In this document: one piece after another, positions 43,902 to 64,000 of the stretch
Position numbering within the stretch: the stretch's first letter is position 1
How the letters are laid out: each line of letters begins with the position of its first letter
DNA from: a virus
DNA length: 64,000 nucleotides
Reading direction: 5' to 3' (one strand)
IMG/VR virus record: IMGVR_UViG_3300038696_000205
Location: 55,323 to 119,322 of that record
The notes under the pieces: model-generated
What the model was told of the DNA's origin: nothing
Databases searched by the model: none
The model's input: only the letters and a program-made list of their open reading frames with translations
Translations under genes and position numbers: made by a program

Positions 43902-43976
43902 TGGAGCGGAAAATGAGATTCGAACTCACAACCTTTGAATCGGCAATCCAATACTCTACCGTTGAGCTACTTCCGC
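43902..43976 (-). tRNA. tRNA-Gly(GCC)
   Basis: Full cloverleaf, loop TT-GCC-GA, encoded CCA. Confidence 0.92.
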
Positions 43977-43986
43977 ATTATTTATT

Positions 43987-44634
43987 CTAATAGCTTTTAC
44001 CCCCTTTATATCTTTCTCTCCTACTGTACCTACCATTACCACTATTTAACGCTTTATAAGTAGGGGTCAATGAATGACAATTAGGGCAAAGTAATTTTAA
44101 ATTATCTAATGAATTATTACTTGAGTTACCATCAATATGTTCTAATTCAATTGGCACCTTACCACTATGGGGGTTAACTTCACGCCAACCACAACCCATA
44201 CATTTTTTACCATTCTTATAAATTAAATATTTTCTATATTGCCCGACAAATAATGTAGTATCACCTTCTTCAATTTTTTCAAATATTATTTTTCTATTAT
44301 AATTTTGCTGACAAGTATTATCGCAAAATTTATTTAATACTAAATTGCCACAACCCAAACATTCATTAAGTGATTTTAACCTTAACTTATTATTATAAGT
44401 CGCACTACAAGAACGTGAACAAAATTTTTCACCTTTATTTTTTATTTCATTTCCACATTTAATGCAAATTTTAGATTCTTTAAATTTGTATTTGGATAAT
44501 GTTTCACCCATCTTACCTAATTTATTTCTAATTGCATTATTACCCCTTCCCGTTATTTCACTTATTTCATCGTAAGTTTTACCCTCTTTAAGTAATTTAA
44601 TACTAAATTTAATTTCCTTTTTACACCATTTCAT
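43987..44634 (-). CDS. HNH homing endonuclease
   Basis: ELEHIDGNSSNN...LLCPNCHS; zinc-ribbon repeats. Confidence 0.88.
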   Translation of the reverse strand: MKWCKKEIKFSIKLLKEGKTYDEISEITGRGNNAIRNKLGKMGETLSKYKFKESKICIKCGNEIKNKGEKFCSRSCSATYNNKLRLKSLNECLGCGNLVLNKFCDNTCQQNYNRKIIFEKIEEGDTTLFVGQYRKYLIYKNGKKCMGCGWREVNPHSGKVPIELEHIDGNSSNNSLDNLKLLCPNCHSLTPTYKALNSGNGRYSRRERYKGGKSY

Positions 44635-44695
44635 ATTTTATATATAATAAAATGAGCGGAAAAGTCAAGTCGAAATTATAATTAATTTCATTTTG

Positions 44696-44767
44696 AGCAC
44701 AAAATCAGATTCGAACTGATGACTAAGCTTTACAAGGGCCTTATTTTTCCAACTAAACTATGTGTGC
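44696..44767 (-). tRNA. tRNA-Thr(TGT)
   Basis: Cloverleaf, loop CT-TGT-AA. Confidence 0.8.
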
Positions 44768-44817
44768 ATTTATAGTCTTTCCTATCGTCAACCTTTGAAA
44801 GAGTAGTTATCTCCTAG

Positions 44818-44890
44818 TGCGAAAGAAGAGATTCGAACTCTCACTGTGGACTTGGAAGGCCCCTGTGCTAACCGTTAACACCACTCTCGC
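44818..44890 (-). tRNA. tRNA-Gly(TCC)
   Basis: Cloverleaf, loop CT-TCC-AA. Confidence 0.88.
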
Positions 44891-44972
44891 AATTTATGTG
44901 TCTCTCCACATCGTCACCCATTCCTTGAATTTCAACCACGCACAGTTATAGGTATCCTTGCGCTAATATTAA

Positions 44973-45431
44973 TTAATTTATATATTTACCATAATTTTTA
45001 CCAGCGTATGTATCAGTTTGAGAATGACAATTAGGACATAAAAAACGTAAATTATTTAACCGATTATCGTTTCTAATACCATTTATGTGGTCTAACTGTA
45101 ATTTTATTACTCTATCCATCCACTCACCTTCGTTACCACACCCACAACATTTATATTCTACTATATTTTCACTTATAATTCTTTTCTTTAAACTAGTGTT
45201 ATTAGTGTATTTTGAATCTTTAACTAAAATTTCAACCATTGGTGTTTTATTTTTAACATTCCTCAAATGTTTACTATTCAACCTTAGCATATGGTCAACA
45301 TTCAACCCCTCATTATCAATACGCTCTTTAATGCTTTTATGTATTGCACCACTTTTATTTTTATACCCTAATTTACGTAAAATATCCGTAATAGAATCAC
45401 TATTTTTCACTAACTTTTTAAACTCACTCAA
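44973..45431 (-). CDS. HNH homing endonuclease
   Basis: LQLDHINGIRNDNRLNNLRFLCPNCHS. Confidence 0.88.
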   Translation of the reverse strand: MSEFKKLVKNSDSITDILRKLGYKNKSGAIHKSIKERIDNEGLNVDHMLRLNSKHLRNVKNKTPMVEILVKDSKYTNNTSLKKRIISENIVEYKCCGCGNEGEWMDRVIKLQLDHINGIRNDNRLNNLRFLCPNCHSQTDTYAGKNYGKYIN

Positions 45432-45520
45432 TTCAATAGAATTAATTCTATTTTTTTTTTAACATTTTTAATATTTAATTATAAATATGATAATAAAAGT
45501 AAAAGACCTAATATCTTATA

Positions 45521-45561
45521 CTTTACAGTCCCGCTGCCGTATCCGAACGACTTTCACCCCC
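45521..45561 (-). pseudogene. 5' half of tRNA-Tyr(GTA)
   Basis: GGGGTGAAAGTCGTTCGGATACGGCAGCGGGA-CT-GTA-AA, then sequence switches to the HNH upstream region; no 3' half seen. Confidence 0.6.
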
Positions 45562-45568
45562 AATTTAG

Positions 45569-45640
45569 TACCCCCAGAGAATTTTGAAATCTCGACTCCC
45601 CCGTTAAAAGCGGGGTGCTCTGCCTCTGAGCTATGAGGGC
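45569..45640 (-). tRNA. tRNA-Lys(TTT)
   Basis: CCCCG-CT-TTT-AA-CGGGG. Confidence 0.88.
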
Positions 45641-45722
45641 GTTTTGAATGTGTCCACTTTCCACCTATCGGGTCTTTCACCTGTCAAAACGGGTGGTGCG
45701 TTACACATTCAATTTTTATTTG

Positions 45723-45793
45723 AGCACAATGTGGGAATCAAACCCCGTCCTCTGCTTGGAAGGCAAATGCTTTATCATTAAGCTACATCATGC
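45723..45793 (-). tRNA. tRNA-Gly(TCC)
   Basis: TTTGC-CT-TCC-AA-GCAGA. Confidence 0.85.
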
Positions 45794-45911
45794 ATTAAAT
45801 GATTTCAATAAATAGATGTATCATGAATTTACTATTTATTTCAAACGCAACTATCCCAAGTCTCACCGAGGCGTTACAGACGTGCTTGTACATTGCACGA
45901 ATAATCATTTG

Positions 45912-45982
45912 AACCACCACACGGAAACGAGCCGAGATTTTATCCCTACCAAGGACACGTAATACCATTATACCATGGCGGC
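45912..45982 (-). tRNA. tRNA-Thr(GGT), degenerate T-loop
   Basis: TGTCC-TT-GGT-AG-GGATA; T-loop CTCGTTT. Confidence 0.65.
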
Positions 45983-45989
45983 AATTTGT

Positions 45990-46075
45990 TGGGTAATGAG
46001 GATTTGAACCTCTCAGTCAATAAACAACACCCTTACGTATGGTGCTATCGATTCACACATCGATTAGTTACCTGT
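45990..46075 (-). ncRNA. tRNA-like RNA with palindromic D-arm and 9-nt anticodon loop
   Basis: T-arm GAGG-TTCAAAT-CCTC; partial acceptor pairing GGTAA/TTACC. Confidence 0.4.
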
Positions 46076-46114
46076 GATAGTTTTTATTAAGTTCAGTTCT
46101 ATCAACTGACACAG

Positions 46115-46189
46115 TTCCCCCAGTCGGGTTCGAACCGACATTGATGCCTAGTTAAAAGCTAGGTGCTTTACCCAGTCAGCCATGGGGGA
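46115..46189 (-). tRNA. tRNA-Lys(TTT)
   Basis: CCTAG-CT-TTT-AA-CTAGG. Confidence 0.9.
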
Positions 46190-46195
46190 ATATTG

Positions 46196-46277
46196 TGGGG
46201 GTAGAGGGATTCGAACCCCCAATGTCGTAAGACCACAGATTTACAGTCTGCTGAGCAACCAGTTGCTCAATACCCCC
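46196..46277 (-). tRNA. tRNA-Tyr(GTA)
   Basis: GCAGA-CT-GTA-AA-TCTGT, long variable arm. Confidence 0.92.
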
Positions 46278-46286
46278 ATTAATTTG

Positions 46287-46357
46287 TCGATAGACCAAGA
46301 ATCGAACTCAGTCCTTAACCCCCAATGGGTCACATGCTTTCATTACACCATCTACCG
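46287..46357 (-). tRNA. atypical tRNA: Pro-type acceptor (C1:G72, A73), loop CA-TTG-GG
   Basis: Well-formed cloverleaf with A33. Confidence 0.6.
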
Positions 46358-46361
46358 TTAG

Positions 46362-46435
46362 TTGGGGTGGAGGGATTTGAACCCCCAATCTGAAATGGCT
46401 CAAAACCACCCGTAATACCATTATACCACACCCCA
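46362..46435 (-). tRNA. tRNA-Gln(TTG)
   Basis: U1:A72; GGTGG-TT-TTG-AG-CCATT. Confidence 0.88.
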
Positions 46436-46444
46436 ATATACTTG

Positions 46445-46515
46445 TTACTCCACCAAGGTTCGAACTTGGGATACGAGAATCAAAATCTCGTGTCTTACCA
46501 CTACACCATGGAGCA
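46445..46515 (-). tRNA. tRNA-Gln(TTG)
   Basis: U1:A72; CGAGA-TT-TTG-AT-TCTCG. Confidence 0.9.
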
Positions 46516-46523
46516 AAAACTTG

Positions 46524-46597
46524 TAAGGAGAATGGGATTCGAACCCACGACCTCGCCCGTCCAAGGGGCGTAAACAACCTGACCGTTATCTCTCCTT
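46524..46597 (-). tRNA. tRNA-Pro(TGG)
   Basis: CGCCC-CT-TGG-AC-GGGCG; atypical A1:U72. Confidence 0.85.
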
Positions 46598-46659
46598 ATA
46601 TAAACTTTTATTAATAATAAAACTAATAGTACCTTTAGATGATATATTATGTTTATCCA

Positions 46660-46911
46660 TTATTTCACTATATGTCTTACCACAATCCCCCCTTCAAATA
46701 TCTTATCTCCAAATTTCTGATAAGCTTGTAGTCTATGGGTCATTACAACTGACCTTAAACCTTTATATCTTATCGTAAAAAAATGATACCCACCAGTACT
46801 TATAGTATTCCTTGATAATTCATGTCCACGCAATCCAATAACATTACCCTTACTTGTGACCCTGTAACCTTTTTTATGTGCTTCTTTTAAAATCAATGAC
46901 ATTCCATTCAT
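46660..46911 (-). pseudogene. truncated HNH endonuclease
   Basis: THRLQA...VVRH, then a stop before the Asn/His of the HNH motif. Confidence 0.6.
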
Positions 46912-46943
46912 ATTATTCCTTATTTTTATTAACTTTCGGGCAT

Positions 46944-46981
46944 AAAAAAAGCCCAGTTAAAATCGGTTGATTAAACTGGGC
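46944..46981 (-). terminator. attenuator terminator C
   Basis: GCCCAGTT-loop-AACTGGGC-TTTTTTT. Confidence 0.9.
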
Positions 46982-47010
46982 CTGTTGTATTAGATTTAAG
47001 TATATGTATC

Positions 47011-47121
47011 TTATATTCCTGTTTCGGTTTTAGATGACGTTATACACAACATTCCCAGTCTGCTCGGCTTTTGGCCTTGCGGATACTGCTTCCCTTGATA
47101 TGTAGTTGTATAATTTTTCAT
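47011..47121 (-). CDS. leader peptide C (36 aa) MKNYTTTYQGKQYPQGQKPSRLGMLCITSSKTETGI
   Basis: Hand translation; A-rich start; residues 4-19 only Y/T/Q/G/K/P. Confidence 0.85.
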   Translation of the reverse strand: MKNYTTTYQGKQYPQGQKPSRLGMLCITSSKTETGI

Positions 47122-47139
47122 CTTATTTTTCTTTGTGGG

Positions 47140-47175
47140 TTTTAACCCTTTGTTATTAAATATACACAAATATAC
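47140..47175 (-). promoter_or_regulatory. promoter of leader C (TATATTTG + TATATTTAATAACAAAGGGTTAAA)
   Basis: Near-identical block upstream of leader A (61025-61060). Confidence 0.7.
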
Positions 47176-47303
47176 TAAAAAGTACATTAATGTGCAACTA
47201 TTTTTATTATTTTTTTTTAATTAACTGATAATCAGTTATTTTTATAATTCAGAATGGTCTTTTTTCTACATTTGAGAGTTTAGATGCTGAAATCATTCTT
47301 TAG

Positions 47304-47444: not shown

Positions 47445-48235
47445 ATGAATGCTTGAGTGGTGGGCATATATGTTAAAATTTAATAGGGTTTCCCCTCTTA
47501 CACACACCTTTCATTTCTGTCAGGTAGTCAACATTAAGGTAGCATTAGAGTTGCTATTACTCACTACACACGTTAATATAAACTTTCTTCAACACCCAGT
47601 CTCCTTGCGAGAGTTCAGAGGGGCAAACCTCTTACTAATGACATTTACTAGAAGTTTCAGTCTTGGCCTTGTGAGCTTACTAACTGCCTATATATTTCAA
47701 TAGGATAACTTAATTTTCAACGTATGTTCAACAGAACTTTTACTTTTGTTATCATTTAAAGATATTTTTTTGTTATTCTCTTAAATCCAGGATGTGTCTG
47801 TTGATTGACAATCGTACTACCTTTTGAGTAGGTTAGATTACGACACCCCAATGTACCTTTTTACAGCTACGTCAATAAATTCACTTCAAACCTTATTGTA
47901 AGCCCCAACCGAAGTCAGGTAACTTACTAGTTATCCCATGAACTTTCATGATGAATTAAGCCTCTAGGATTTTTAATCCCCTTGACCCAATTCTAACTAT
48001 TCATTTATTTGTATTTCTACATCAACACCCAACGAGAAAATTGAATGTAGCACCTCCGAGCAGTGCTCTCTTAGTGCCGTAAATAGCTTGCTTACACGGA
48101 TTACATAAATGTAACGCAATAGCTGTTTCCGAAACTACTGCTTTATCCCATCACTGGATTATCCTTAATTACCCGAAGGTAAATGGAGCATAAGCACCCC
48201 AATTTTTTAATATTTTAAAGAACGTTTGTTTTTTA
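47445..48235 (-). ncRNA. large (~0.8 kb) structured ncRNA, GOLLD-like candidate
   Basis: No credible ORF, raised GC, many hairpins, own TATATTTG promoter at ~48243, lies among tRNAs; family not verified. Confidence 0.55.
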
Positions 48236-52160: not shown

Positions 52161-52978
52161 TGATTCTAATGGGGGTCGAAAGTTATTTTTCGAAATATTT
52201 TTATATTTATTAATAAATATTAATTATGAGACCAATGTATACTGAAAATGAATTTAACTTAGCTAAACCAATTGATGAACTTCCATGTGAATGTTACAAT
52301 TGTAATAACATTTTTTATATTACAAAACACAAAATTCAAAGGTCGTTAAACAAAAATCATGTTAGCACTAGTCACTTTTGTTCTAATAAGTGTAAATTTA
52401 TAGCACAAAAAACAAAACAAAAAATAAACTGCACAAATTGTAATTTAGAATTTGAAAAATTTCCTAGTCAAATAAAAAAATCAAGCAATCATTATTGTAA
52501 TAAATCTTGTGCCGCCACCTATAACAATAAAAATAAAAAACACGGTACAAAACGCTCTAAACTTGAAATCTGGTTAGAAGAACAGTTAACAATTCTTTAC
52601 CCTAATTTAGTTATTCATTTTAATAGAAAAGATACAATCGGTTCTGAATTAGATATTTATTTCCCAACACTTAATTTAGCTATTGAACTTAATGGGATAT
52701 TCCATTATGAGCCAATATTTGGTATAGATAAATTAAGTAAAATACAAAAAAATGATAAATCTAAATCAAAAACTTGTATCGATGCAAAGATTGATTTATG
52801 TATAATCGATACATCAGCACAAAAATACTTTAAACCAAAGACATCACAAAAATATTTTGATATCATAATTAAAATTGTCAATGAACGTGTTAATATTTTA
52901 GTCACCTAAATTAGGTGTGCGATAACCACTACGTGCAAGTAGATTAACTTTGGTTATCTGATTCTAATGGGGGTCGAA
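52161..52978. mobile_element. endonuclease cassette flanked by a 20-bp direct repeat of the suppressor tRNA 3' end
   Basis: tgattctaatgggggtcgaa at 52161-52180 and 52959-52978. Confidence 0.7.
52226..52909 (+). CDS. zinc-ribbon + PD-(D/E)xK (Vsr-like) putative homing endonuclease
   Basis: CxxC repeats; ELDIYFP...AIELNGIFHY. Confidence 0.75.
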   Translation: MRPMYTENEFNLAKPIDELPCECYNCNNIFYITKHKIQRSLNKNHVSTSHFCSNKCKFIAQKTKQKINCTNCNLEFEKFPSQIKKSSNHYCNKSCAATYNNKNKKHGTKRSKLEIWLEEQLTILYPNLVIHFNRKDTIGSELDIYFPTLNLAIELNGIFHYEPIFGIDKLSKIQKNDKSKSKTCIDAKIDLCIIDTSAQKYFKPKTSQKYFDIIIKIVNERVNILVT

Positions 52979-53031
52979 CCCATAACCGTCATTTTTAGAG
53001 AATGCAGCTCTGCCAGTTGAGCTATAGAACC
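52959..53031 (-). tRNA. amber suppressor tRNA (anticodon CTA)
   Basis: Full cloverleaf; GCATT-CT-CTA-AA-AATGA; own TATATTTG promoter at ~53055. Confidence 0.85.
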
Positions 53032-54357: not shown

Positions 54358-54885
54358 TTATTTTATATATTTAGGTAAAACTTTATCCGTTAACCAAACA
54401 CCATTTTTTGATTTATAGAACTTGACCCCATCAGCATTCATGCTAGCCGAATCTATTGTTAGTATAATAGCCTTACCTCTTCTATTCGCAACTTTTGTCG
54501 CTGTTTCTATTTCATCACTTAAATGAACGTGTTGCCTATTCATTTTATTGAGGCCAACTTTTCTAATATCTATCGTAAACCTTTCAACTGTTCCATGATA
54601 TAATTCAATTGGTGGCCTTTCAGCTATTAACTTTAAATCTACCTTTAATGAATGACCCTGATTGGCCCTGATTTTGGTTATATCATCATTAAAGGCAAAT
54701 CTTTGTTTATCATTACCATCAACAATACTGATTAACTCCGTTAAATTAATATCGTTACCGTTCTCATTTAATTTGGTTAATAATATATCAACCTCGGTCC
54801 AACCATTTTTATCTAACTTAATACCAATAGTTTCTGGTTTATGCCTTAACACTAAACTTAATAATCTACTTATATTGTACCCCAT
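54358..54885 (-). CDS. kptA: RNA 2'-phosphotransferase Tpt1/KptA
   Basis: SLVLRH, KQRF, IRANQGHS, LYHGT, RQHVHLS, NGVWLT. Confidence 0.95.
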   Translation of the reverse strand: MGYNISRLLSLVLRHKPETIGIKLDKNGWTEVDILLTKLNENGNDINLTELISIVDGNDKQRFAFNDDITKIRANQGHSLKVDLKLIAERPPIELYHGTVERFTIDIRKVGLNKMNRQHVHLSDEIETATKVANRRGKAIILTIDSASMNADGVKFYKSKNGVWLTDKVLPKYIK

Positions 54886-55618: not shown

Positions 55619-56251
55619 TTAAATTATTTTTCTGCCCAATCTCCAACCATCTGGTATTAAATCACCTTTCATTATCTTTTTACTCTCGATTTCATTGGTT
55701 ATCCAACATGTACCAAATTGAGAATTTATCCCCCCCTTACCTTGGCCAGTCTTGATTTTACTAATTTTTAATTTAGTTTCTTCAGAATGTTGTTTACCAG
55801 TGAAAGTATCATATTTAATTTTACCATTTTTGTGATTATCTTTCATAGTGTTAGATGATATTTTACTAATTTTAGCTCTGTGGTCCAAGTCATTTTTTAA
55901 TTTTAAAGCATTTGCTAAACCACCAGCCTTTGAACATCTAAAATGATGGTCATCTAACATGAATCCTCCCCCACCAACAACTAAATTCATACAATCAATC
56001 TTAACTACCTCATTTAGAGTGACTAATTCCTCTTCTCGTTTCTTTAATTCTTCCCTAGAAACACAATATTCAAGTATTTCTCTAATAAAATTCTCTTTAC
56101 CATGTTTTCTTACAGCTAACCTTAATCTATTTCCACTACCTAAATAACCATCATCTAAATTTGATGTACTATGCATCCCTATATAATAACGACCACTTAA
56201 TACATTTGTGGTCTTATATATGAAATGATATTTTTTTTCTTTTCTCGCCAT
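55619..56251 (-). CDS. GIY-YIG (Seg-like) homing endonuclease with NUMOD3
   Basis: FIYKTTN...YYIGMH...YLGSG; HSEETKLKIS. Confidence 0.88.
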   Translation of the reverse strand: MARKEKKYHFIYKTTNVLSGRYYIGMHSTSNLDDGYLGSGNRLRLAVRKHGKENFIREILEYCVSREELKKREEELVTLNEVVKIDCMNLVVGGGGFMLDDHHFRCSKAGGLANALKLKNDLDHRAKISKISSNTMKDNHKNGKIKYDTFTGKQHSEETKLKISKIKTGQGKGGINSQFGTCWITNEIESKKIMKGDLIPDGWRLGRKII

Positions 56252-56566: not shown

Positions 56567-56605
56567 AATTATAATACTAACAAAATGTCAAAAAACTATT
56601 TCCAG

Positions 56606-62755: not shown

Positions 62756-64000
62756 GTGAACTACCCACACACTAAAAAGATGTGTGGGCTTCCTGTACAA
62801 CGCATAGCCTAATGGCTTACGTTAGCGTACAAAGGGTTGTCCCTAACCCCGAAATTTTTTATATTATACGCAGCGTTAAGGTCTCTATCTATTGAATTAT
62901 TACACTTATCACAATTATATGTCCTATCTGAAAGTTTTAAATCTTTCTTGTGGTTTCCACAATTAGAACATACCTTACTGCTCGGTTCAAATCTACCAAT
63001 TACAACAAGGTTTTTACCTTGCCAATCAGTCTTATATTCAAGCATTGTTCTTAATTGTCGCCAACCCATATCAGATATTGCTTTAGCTAAATTATGGTTC
63101 TTAACCATATTACTAACAGCTAAATCTTCCAAAACAATCGTATCATACGTGTTTATTAATTCAGTAGATATTTTATGCAAGTAATCAGTCCTTTGGTTAC
63201 GGATTTTCTCTTGCAACAATGCTACTTTTAATTTTTGTTTCTCTCTATTTATTGAACCTTTCTGTTTTCTCGCAAGACTTCTTTGTTCGACTCTTAATCT
63301 CTTTTGTTGTGATTTAAAAAAGTTTTTATTTTCATATACCACACCATCGGAAGTTATTGCTAAATCTTTAATACCAAAATCAATACCAACAGACGTTTCT
63401 GTTTTTATACTTTTTTGTTTTGGTTTTTCTGTTTGTGTATCAACCAATATTGAAACAAAGTATTTACCAGTTACTGTCTTTGTTAGTGTAACTCTTTTAG
63501 GTAAACCTTTAAATTCTCTATGGTAGTCAATAGCAACTTCTTTAAGTTTAGGTAATTTTAAAATATTATCCTTAAATGATATTTCAAATCCTTGTGGAAA
63601 TGTAATTGACTGTTTAGAGTACTTATTTTTAAATTTAGGGAATTGACCCCTACCTTTAAAAAAGTTTTGGTACGCAGTATCTAAATTAATTATACTATGC
63701 TGTAAAACTTGACTTGGACACTCTTTAATGTAATCAAACTCTTTTCTTAATTCTGGTAGTTGTTTTATTAAGTCGTATTTAGATATTGATTTTTTGTTTG
63801 AAGCATATGCAACAGTCTTAGTTTCTAAACCAAGATTATACACCAACCTGTTCACACCAAAATACCTTTGTAATTGGTCTTTTTGGTCATCCGTTGGAAA
63901 TATTCTGTATTTGTATCCTTTTAGCATATATTATTAAATAGTCTAAACTTTTGTAAAAGTACAATATTTTTTATCTAAAATCAAGTTCTGGTTAAAATTT
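62756..64000 (-). mobile_element. IS200/IS605-family tnpB element (left end outside window)
   Basis: Right-end hairpin CCCACACATC..GTGTGTGGG followed by TAGTTCAC at 62756. Confidence 0.8.
62809..63927 (-). CDS. tnpB: RNA-guided endonuclease TnpB
   Basis: GIDFG, VLEDL, DRDLNAA, zinc finger. Confidence 0.95.
   Translation of the reverse strand: MLKGYKYRIFPTDDQKDQLQRYFGVNRLVYNLGLETKTVAYASNKKSISKYDLIKQLPELRKEFDYIKECPSQVLQHSIINLDTAYQNFFKGRGQFPKFKNKYSKQSITFPQGFEISFKDNILKLPKLKEVAIDYHREFKGLPKRVTLTKTVTGKYFVSILVDTQTEKPKQKSIKTETSVGIDFGIKDLAITSDGVVYENKNFFKSQQKRLRVEQRSLARKQKGSINREKQKLKVALLQEKIRNQRTDYLHKISTELINTYDTIVLEDLAVSNMVKNHNLAKAISDMGWRQLRTMLEYKTDWQGKNLVVIGRFEPSSKVCSNCGNHKKDLKLSDRTYNCDKCNNSIDRDLNAAYNIKNFGVRDNPLYANVSH

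Follow-up and report, generated by a model that had tools for sequence, protein, structure and literature searches.

The 64,000-nucleotide (nt) stretch of DNA analysed here (the window) is the 3' part of the 119,322-base phage record IMGVR_UViG_3300038696_000205 of IMG/VR, which represents a large, uncultured phage with a G+C content of 32%. All 26 transfer RNA (tRNA)-like genes of the record fall in the window and lie on its minus strand, where there are arrays with leaders designated A, B, and C. The array under study, unit C, is, as judged from its sequence, one transcription unit consisting of a promoter, a short leader open reading frame (ORF), a putative attenuator, and 12 tRNA genes interspersed with homing-endonuclease inserts. 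The leader ORF contains a run of codons for exactly those amino acids that are served by the tRNAs encoded behind it. The features of the leader and the borders of the unit are as follows (MFE, minimum free energy; UTR, untranslated region).

47197-47167, minus strand: unit C promoter of the Bacteroidota type, with TTG at 47197-47195, a 19-nt spacer, and the TAnnTTTG -7 box at 47174-47167
47148-47137, minus strand: small 5'-UTR hairpin with a GGG/CCC stem (MFE fold), followed by an A-rich stretch and then the start codon
47121-47011, minus strand: leader ORF C, 36 codons, from ATG at 47121 to the TAA stop at 47013-47011
47112-47065, minus strand: sensor codons 4-19 (Tyr x3, Thr x3, Gln x4, Gly x2, Lys x2, Pro x2)
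47112-47105, minus strand: region 1, the putative anti-antiterminator arm within sensor codons 4-6, pairing with 47050-47043 in MFE folds
47061-47043, minus strand: region 2, codons 21-27, with region 1 or region 3 as partner
46990-46973, minus strand: region 3, the 5' arm of the terminator together with the 8 nt preceding it, forming the antiterminator with region 2
46982-46944, minus strand: intrinsic terminator, stem 46982-46974 / 46958-46950 and U7 tract 46950-46944, -16.5 kcal/mol
43902-43877, minus strand: terminator closing unit C, 11-bp stem and T-run

The promoter belongs to a Bacteroidota-type motif (TTG, 18-20 nt, TAnnTTTG) that occurs 32 times in the window, 29 of these on the coding strand, against an expectation of 6.2 +/- 2.5. 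Leaders A and B have a promoter of the same form, and the copy at 47197-47167 is the sole full motif on the minus strand from 47200 to 43902. A scan for sigma-70-type promoters was dropped, as it showed no enrichment (94 found, 89 expected). The first-pass annotation of this DNA had named array-internal promoters as the finding that would speak against control by the leader; a motif scan revealed none of the phage's type inside the array. Because the unit contains no other phage-type promoter, all twelve tRNAs depend on the leader promoter, as far as the sequence tells. The next promoter follows at 43871-43841, past the closing terminator. The leader ORF is indeed present as annotated, while its implied length of about 30 codons had to be corrected to 36. 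A mechanical ORF track extends it further to an ATG at 47187, which lies outside the transcript because it is located upstream of the -7 box. No Shine-Dalgarno sequence precedes the start of leader ORF C, and the stem of the 5'-UTR hairpin, which is similar to that in the UTR of leader A, is retained in the homologous leaders L081 and L084.

Translation from 47121 agrees with the earlier statement that residues 4-19 consist of Tyr, Thr, Gln, Gly, Lys, and Pro only, and the array at 46597-43902 proved to contain just these six classes and no other, as had been claimed. The tRNA genes were called by ARAGORN, which finds all 12 of them (Pro(tgg), Gln(ttg) x3, Tyr(gta), Lys(ttt) x2, Thr(ggt), Thr(tgt), Gly(tcc) x2, and Gly(gcc)), and additionally with the Rfam tRNA model, which recovers 11 of the 12 and misses the one at 46286-46357. 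The genes and inserts of the array are listed in their order of transcription.

46911-46660, minus strand: truncated HNH homing-endonuclease ORF of 83 amino acids (phrog_959, E 8e-6, profile positions 9-82 of 138)
46597-46523, minus strand: tRNA-Pro(tgg), ARAGORN and Rfam
46515-46444, minus strand: tRNA-Gln(ttg), ARAGORN and Rfam
46435-46361, minus strand: second tRNA-Gln(ttg), ARAGORN and Rfam
46357-46286, minus strand: third, atypical tRNA-Gln(ttg) with UUG anticodon, ARAGORN only
46277-46195, minus strand: tRNA-Tyr(gta), ARAGORN and Rfam
46189-46114, minus strand: tRNA-Lys(ttt), ARAGORN and Rfam
45982-45911, minus strand: tRNA-Thr(ggt), ARAGORN and Rfam
45793-45722, minus strand: tRNA-Gly(tcc), ARAGORN and Rfam
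45640-45568, minus strand: second tRNA-Lys(ttt), ARAGORN and Rfam
45431-44973, minus strand: HNH homing-endonuclease ORF (PF01844; phrog_10822, E 2e-47)
44890-44817, minus strand: second tRNA-Gly(tcc), ARAGORN and Rfam
44767-44695, minus strand: tRNA-Thr(tgt), ARAGORN and Rfam
44634-43987, minus strand: HNH homing-endonuclease ORF (PF01844/PF13392; phrog_1271, E 6e-21)
43976-43902, minus strand: tRNA-Gly(gcc), last gene of the unit, ARAGORN and Rfam

The tRNA at 46286-46357, whose anticodon loop looks unusual in that there is apparently no U before the anticodon, corresponds to what had been annotated as a UUG oddity. The previously reported half of a tRNA-Tyr could be confirmed as a piece resembling a tRNA 3' half, with the T arm and the acceptor strand, in the gap at 45983-46113 (minus strand), while its assignment to Tyr is doubtful, the best local alignment, to the tRNA-Tyr of the window, being weak (score 16). 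Another gap, at 45641-45721 (minus strand), is filled by an 81-nt hairpin-like spacer.

Under standard wobble rules, the array's anticodons can read every one of the 16 sensor codons, down to the choice of synonymous codons, since the Thr codons ACA and ACT fit Thr(tgt) and Thr(ggt) and the Gly codons GGG and GGC fit Gly(tcc) and Gly(gcc). Across all six reading frames of the genome (119,322 bases), this run of 16 codons is the longest that the array can read, and the runner-up reaches 10; with array-readable codons amounting to 29.9% of the codons in long ORFs, the chance of such a run is 4e-9 per position. A comparison of the three leaders with the three arrays at the codon level yields a diagonal pattern: leader C matches its own array with 23 of its 36 codons and the other two with 2 and 1, leader A its own array with 8 and the others with 0 and 4, and leader B its own with 9 and the others with 0 and 3. 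The sensor picks rare synonymous codons of the phage for Pro (CCG, used twice), Gly (GGC and GGG), and Lys (AAG, used twice), which account for 7% (CCG), 7% (GGC), 14% (GGG), and 29% (AAG) of the synonymous usage, and common ones for Tyr, Gln, and Thr. This rare-codon bias is modest (P ~0.04) and should be regarded as a hint only, yet rare sensor codons would raise the sensitivity of the gauge.

The leader RNA can form the three alternative pairings known from classical attenuators, namely 1:2, 2:3, and 3:4. The antiterminator arms recognized before, 47061-47044 and 46990-46973, pair in 16 of 18 positions as stated, with 14 Watson-Crick and two G-U pairs and two A/G mismatches, and the 2:3 duplex reaches -24.0 kcal/mol vs -8.9 +/- 2.4 for shuffled arms, none of 200 shuffles being as good. 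The 1:2 duplex amounts to -13.3 kcal/mol vs -7.3 +/- 2.6 for shuffled arms and beats the shuffles in eight of eight leader variants (0-5 of 200 as good). The free leader folds as the 1:2 helix plus the terminator; when region 1 is left out, the 2:3 pairing wins with -27.3 vs -17.4 kcal/mol for the terminator alone. In a model in which a ribosome footprint of 28 nt was masked codon by codon on the full transcript, the antiterminator attains a probability of 0.5-0.9 when one of codons 2-6, 8-10, or 13 occupies the A site, and the terminator one of 0.98-1.00 without a ribosome, with a ribosome at the stop codon, or with one on codons 14-30. Before region 4 emerges, the 2:3 pairing is possible in this model for any stall up to codon 18, and it is physically blocked by a ribosome covering codons 19-28. 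The modelled behaviour under the ribosome mask is that of a classical attenuator.

Homologous leaders were searched in IMG/VR with a pattern for the conserved core and in metagenomes with a looser pattern that left the N-terminal half free; part of the invariance of the sensor core among the homologues is thus imposed by the search patterns. The core pattern retrieved 12 contigs from IMG/VR, all 12 with genuine leader-type ORFs of 29-36 codons, and the looser one 30 metagenome contigs, of which 23 contain genuine leader ORFs of 29-36 codons and the other seven represent chance matches with no tRNAs. Every genuine match in either collection is followed by a T-run within 120 nt past the stop codon and, where the contig continues, by a tRNA array whose first gene is Pro(tgg) or, in the group of L084, Gln; exceptions are L091 and L093, whose contigs end early, and L114, where the nearest tRNA is 1.8 kb off. 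The first tRNA lies about 60-110 nt past the U-tract in the relatives, which lack the insert of the truncated HNH ORF found between attenuator terminator and tRNA-Pro in the window. Altogether, 19 distinct homologous leader RNAs were obtained from phage and metagenome contigs of up to 362 kb. They retain the ATG start, the frame, and a length of 29-36 codons, and the arrays behind them are made of Pro, Gln, Tyr, Thr, Gly, and Lys genes.

At the positions that are not forced by the looser pattern (codons 7-10, 14, and 17), the homologues carry T, Y, Q/K, G/P, P/T, and Q/G/T, respectively, with a single Asn as the lone outlier. The exchanges of Gly for Pro, Pro for Thr, and Gln for Gly would make sense as natural steps between tRNA identities, whereas they appear odd in terms of peptide chemistry. 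The correspondence may extend to synonymous codons: the core Thr codons are ACA or ACG in relatives possessing only Thr(tgt), and the window, which has Thr(ggt) as well, shows ACT where its closest relative shows ACG. Other leader types of the relatives follow their arrays in the same way, Leu/Val/Cys leaders heading Cys-Val-Leu arrays and Phe/Asp/Glu/Ala leaders heading Phe-Glu-Asp-Ala arrays.

The terminator and the antiterminator were assessed for covariation on an alignment (A2) of the 19 leaders. For the 16 pairs of the antiterminator, 80.4% of the alignment cells are paired (32-45% when slid) and seven pairs have changed on both sides, with 33 two-sided cells vs 15.4 +/- 3.4 after shuffling; for the nine pairs of the terminator, the corresponding values are 88.9% (17-60% when slid), five pairs, and 32 vs 11.5 +/- 3.5 cells. 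Alignment column 157 in region 3 covaries with column 65 in region 2 (C-G in 10 and U-A in nine leaders, none unpaired) and also with column 179 in region 4, and this three-way covariation is what would be predicted for two mutually exclusive helices. The residues encoded over region 2, i.e., the tail of the peptide, vary freely among the homologues; this part of the ORF therefore seems to be constrained as RNA and the sensor part as codons. The earlier interpretation as a leader attenuator is thus supported by the retention of both the six-amino-acid sensor and the same kind of array in 19 homologues, and by the compensatory changes in terminator and antiterminator.

An ORF directly behind the promoter, a run of sensor codons, an intrinsic terminator, and an antiterminator excluding it are all found in the leader of unit C, which probably represents a multivalent ribosome-mediated attenuator in the style of the trp and ilv operons, turning the array on when any one of the six tRNA classes decodes slowly. 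A ribosome proceeding at normal speed would run through region 2 (codons 21-27) while the polymerase makes regions 3 and 4; behind the moving ribosome, region 2 would pair again with region 1, the 3:4 terminator would form, and transcription would end at 46950-46944. A shortage of charged tRNA for any of the classes Tyr, Thr, Gln, Gly, Lys, and Pro would slow the reading of a sensor codon and stall the ribosome on or near region 1, leaving region 2 free to pair with the emerging region 3, so that no terminator would form and the polymerase would enter the array. The newly made phage tRNAs would relieve the stall and shut off unit C again, resulting in a closed-loop, demand-driven supply of tRNAs with an OR logic over six tRNA classes. 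The sequence data bear out the anatomy of the unit, the match between codons and anticodons, the conservation, the covariation, and the thermodynamic plausibility of the scheme, from which we infer translation of the leader ORF, its coupling to transcription, stall-dependent readthrough, and the nature of the physiological trigger. The latter could be tRNA cleavage by host defences or plain supply and demand in a phage of this base composition; to name PrrC or a retron effector as triggers is speculation.

Several observations weigh against this interpretation or limit it. The equilibrium model still yields the terminator for stalls at sensor codons 14-19, so that the contribution of this last third of the sensor, if there is any, would have to be kinetic. 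The pairing registers of the 1:2 helix differ among the homologues, and this helix has no column-wise support from covariation. The order of the core peptide is fairly well conserved among the homologues, and since this conservation is partly forced by the patterns, it leaves by itself room for a function at the level of the peptide. Finally, the relatives carry a conserved TTGACAT-containing motif between the terminator and the first tRNA; if this is a promoter, their arrays also receive an input that is independent of the attenuator. The motif, GTTC[TA]TTGACATnnTGG, was noted at L072 13771, L078 16632, L079 3246, L081 483, L084 5912, L087 1686, L088 2558, L089 2581, L090 3891 and 6782, L074 1371, and window 56580-56596 on the minus strand. 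It is located 40-60 nt past the attenuator terminator and just before the first tRNA in the relatives, occurs also between tRNAs, and may serve either in RNA processing or as an additional promoter. It was considered as a sigma-70 -35 box and rejected as such, there being no properly spaced -10 box and the tRNAs of L088 and L089 starting about 15 nt after it. In unit C of the window the motif is degenerate, and no TTGACAT-type copy was found inside the unit.

The conserved order of the core peptide also favours the view that the product of the short ORF is a small peptide with a function of its own, or that its frame has been conserved fortuitously, with the hairpin as a constitutive, partly leaky terminator or a processing signal that sets no more than the level of the array, and it is in line with this view that the N-terminal motif shared by leaders A and B arises by chance in many phage contigs as well. 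However, the agreement of the peptide composition with the tRNA set, the exchanges within this set at the free positions, the covariation of region 2 with the 5' arm of the terminator despite drifting residues, and the uniqueness of the codon run in the genome would all be left unexplained, which makes this explanation highly improbable. An equally small likelihood is assigned to readthrough being set without the ribosome, by a phage or host factor acting on the leader RNA or the polymerase, such as a protein antiterminator or uncharged tRNA bound in the manner of a T-box. Antitermination factors are common in phages, and further structured RNAs, one of them GOLLD-like and one Y-RNA-like, lie next to unit C, but the leader contains no T-box or other cis-regulatory match to Rfam and no specifier-like element for the six tRNAs, and neither the conservation of start codon and frame nor the choice of codons would be accounted for.

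Less remote, if still unlikely, is the case of the same attenuator responding to another signal, be it general translation stress, amino-acid starvation, or, in the manner of a timer, the change in host translation capacity in the course of an infection, with the array serving as a general boost rather than as a targeted replacement. Any slow-down of decoding stalls the ribosome, and the sequence cannot separate scarcity of tRNA from scarcity of amino acids; the rare Pro, Gly, and Lys codons of the sensor fit a generic slow-codon gauge, and an extra tRNA operon of Anabaena is induced by general translational stress (PMC8421152). Against this stands that a general gauge needs no amino-acid set specific to its array, whereas the three leaders of the window and four classes in the relatives mirror their own arrays, and that starvation for amino acids is not relieved by extra tRNA. 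A more specific version of tRNA-class sensing by the attenuator would make the leader a sentinel for attack by host anticodon nucleases: cleavage of any of the six host tRNA classes in an infected cell would stall the ribosome on the corresponding sensor codon and switch on replacement phage tRNAs, which are possibly nuclease-resistant. Sentinels A, B, and C would each cover their own part of the code, in concert with genes for RNA repair (Tpt1, Y-RNA-like element). This proposal is rather more doubtful than probable; if true, the phage would possess a counter-defence induced by tRNA damage that is sensed at the ribosome itself.

Two arrangements in the relatives may be noted apart from these considerations. 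L074 (864-962) has a leader of a fourth class, with many Ile, Asn, His, Arg, Met, and Ser residues, before tRNAs for Asn-His-Ser-Ile-Asn-Met-Arg-Arg-Ser, and the phage of the window has no array of this Asn-His-Ser-Ile-Met-Arg type. A hybrid leader with a tail like class C occurs in L076 (5639-5740; G005:C1 ~73640) and is followed by a merged array of Pro, Gln, His, Arg, Pro, Ser, Phe, Glu, and Asp tRNAs, which it matches partially, in 11 of 20 residues; apparently, a reshuffling has affected both the leader and its array.

Further elements were noted around unit C within the window. A GOLLD-like large RNA at 47450-47849 (minus strand) lies directly upstream of the leader C promoter and spans the whole Rfam model RF02032 (positions 1-416) with 57.6 bits, compared with a gathering score of 150, and E 7.5e-13. 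A Tpt1/KptA RNA 2'-phosphotransferase is encoded among the tRNA arrays at 54358-54885 (minus strand; PF01885, E 1.2e-49), which hints at an RNA-repair pathway alongside the tRNAs. A tRNA with a CUA anticodon (amber-suppressor type, labelled 'Pyl' by ARAGORN) at 52959-53031 (minus strand) has its own full promoter at 53088-53058 and no leader ORF, and the upstream end of the tRNA region is marked by a TnpB-like protein at 62809-63927 (minus strand) with OrfB_IS605, Cas12f-like TNB, and HTH domains. The tRNA arrays are hot spots for homing endonucleases, HNH enzymes being present in units A and C, with three such ORFs in the latter, and a GIY-YIG/NUMOD3 enzyme in array B at 55619-56251 (minus strand). 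Related contigs may therefore break at the borders of the arrays. Two close relatives (L003 and L004), which were identified by a search with the neighbouring protein at 43823-43296, both break exactly at tRNA-Pro, and their leaders were not recovered.

Other collections were searched as well. A blastn search of unit C against 50,697 phage records matched the HNH genes alone and returned no related array or leader, the exact promoter/UTR word recovered one near-identical contig from IMG/VR holding units A and B only, and the leader pattern gave six matches in 185,579 cellular genomes, all of which are chance occurrences inside unrelated sequence and none of which is associated with tRNAs. Among 5.8 billion entries of protein collections, a query with the 58-amino-acid mechanical ORF obtained two matches, namely itself and one relative of 34 amino acids. 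Because the leader ORFs are nearly absent from protein collections, surveys based on proteins are blind to them.

The reason why phages carry tRNA genes has been debated for fifty years, the main answers being compensation for codon usage and escape from tRNA-cutting defences. To our knowledge, the control of these genes has hardly been asked about. If the leader reads the codons of its array as proposed, the phage would use the ribosome to gauge its capacity for decoding and would provide each class of tRNAs as the need arises. It can then be tested which tRNA losses switch on which array, and the leader would represent a compact, programmable sensor of tRNA availability.

A comparison with known regulatory systems places leader C near the attenuators of enterobacterial biosynthetic operons. 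The Rfam leader families (Trp, His, Thr, Leu) and the T-box gave no match in 46940-47200 (cmscan of 43000-64000, E <= 1), so leader C would work like these families but is, as far as the models tell, no sequence member of them. Multivalent leaders are known from enterobacteria, where that of ilvGMEDA reads Ile, Leu, and Val and that of thr reads Thr and Ile, while those of trp, his, leu, and phe read single amino acids. As in the ilvGMEDA, thr, and trp leaders, a short promoter-proximal ORF with sensor codons is combined with mutually exclusive 2:3 and 3:4 pairings, a putative 1:2 pairing, and an intrinsic terminator, and the OR gate over several amino acids is shared with ilvGMEDA and thr. 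In contrast to the enterobacterial leaders, leader C combines six amino-acid classes in one run of 16 codons, occurs in a phage with Bacteroidota-type promoters and without a Shine-Dalgarno sequence, and would regulate tRNAs instead of biosynthetic enzymes, so that the product would act directly on the sensor. Feedback from the cognate tRNA pool on genes of the translation apparatus is in itself familiar, pheST being attenuated via the leader pheM and T-box riboswitches binding uncharged tRNA directly with no need for a ribosome. In these respects pheM and the T-box resemble unit C, although pheM acts on a synthetase gene and senses a single amino acid; the pheL leader has been reviewed elsewhere (PMC3082878).

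The nearest case in print appears to be the trn operon of Anabaena PCC 7120, a cryptic long array of tRNA genes that normally stays silent and is switched on by impaired translation (PMC8421152). As proposed for unit C, it is an extra tRNA array responding to impaired translation; unlike unit C, it is cellular rather than viral and is controlled at the promoter, where direct repeats are bound by the repressor TrcR (PMC8421152; PMC10272220), and the former paper contains no mention of a leader peptide, attenuation, or a terminator. Phage-borne tRNAs, among them those for Lys and Tyr, are reported to stand in for host tRNAs that defence nucleases have cleaved (PMC10264068; PMC11555353; for AriB of PARIS, PMC12409363), and a search of PMC10264068 for regulatory terms found no mention of a leader peptide, attenuation, or a promoter. 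Unit C encodes such classes of tRNA, and these cases offer a rationale for sensing the corresponding codons. Searches of the full-text literature found no description of tRNA genes controlled by a leader peptide. What seems to be new in unit C is therefore the application of leader-peptide attenuation to tRNA genes, attenuation itself being long known, and classical attenuation would thereby be extended to non-coding products that feed straight back on the sensor.

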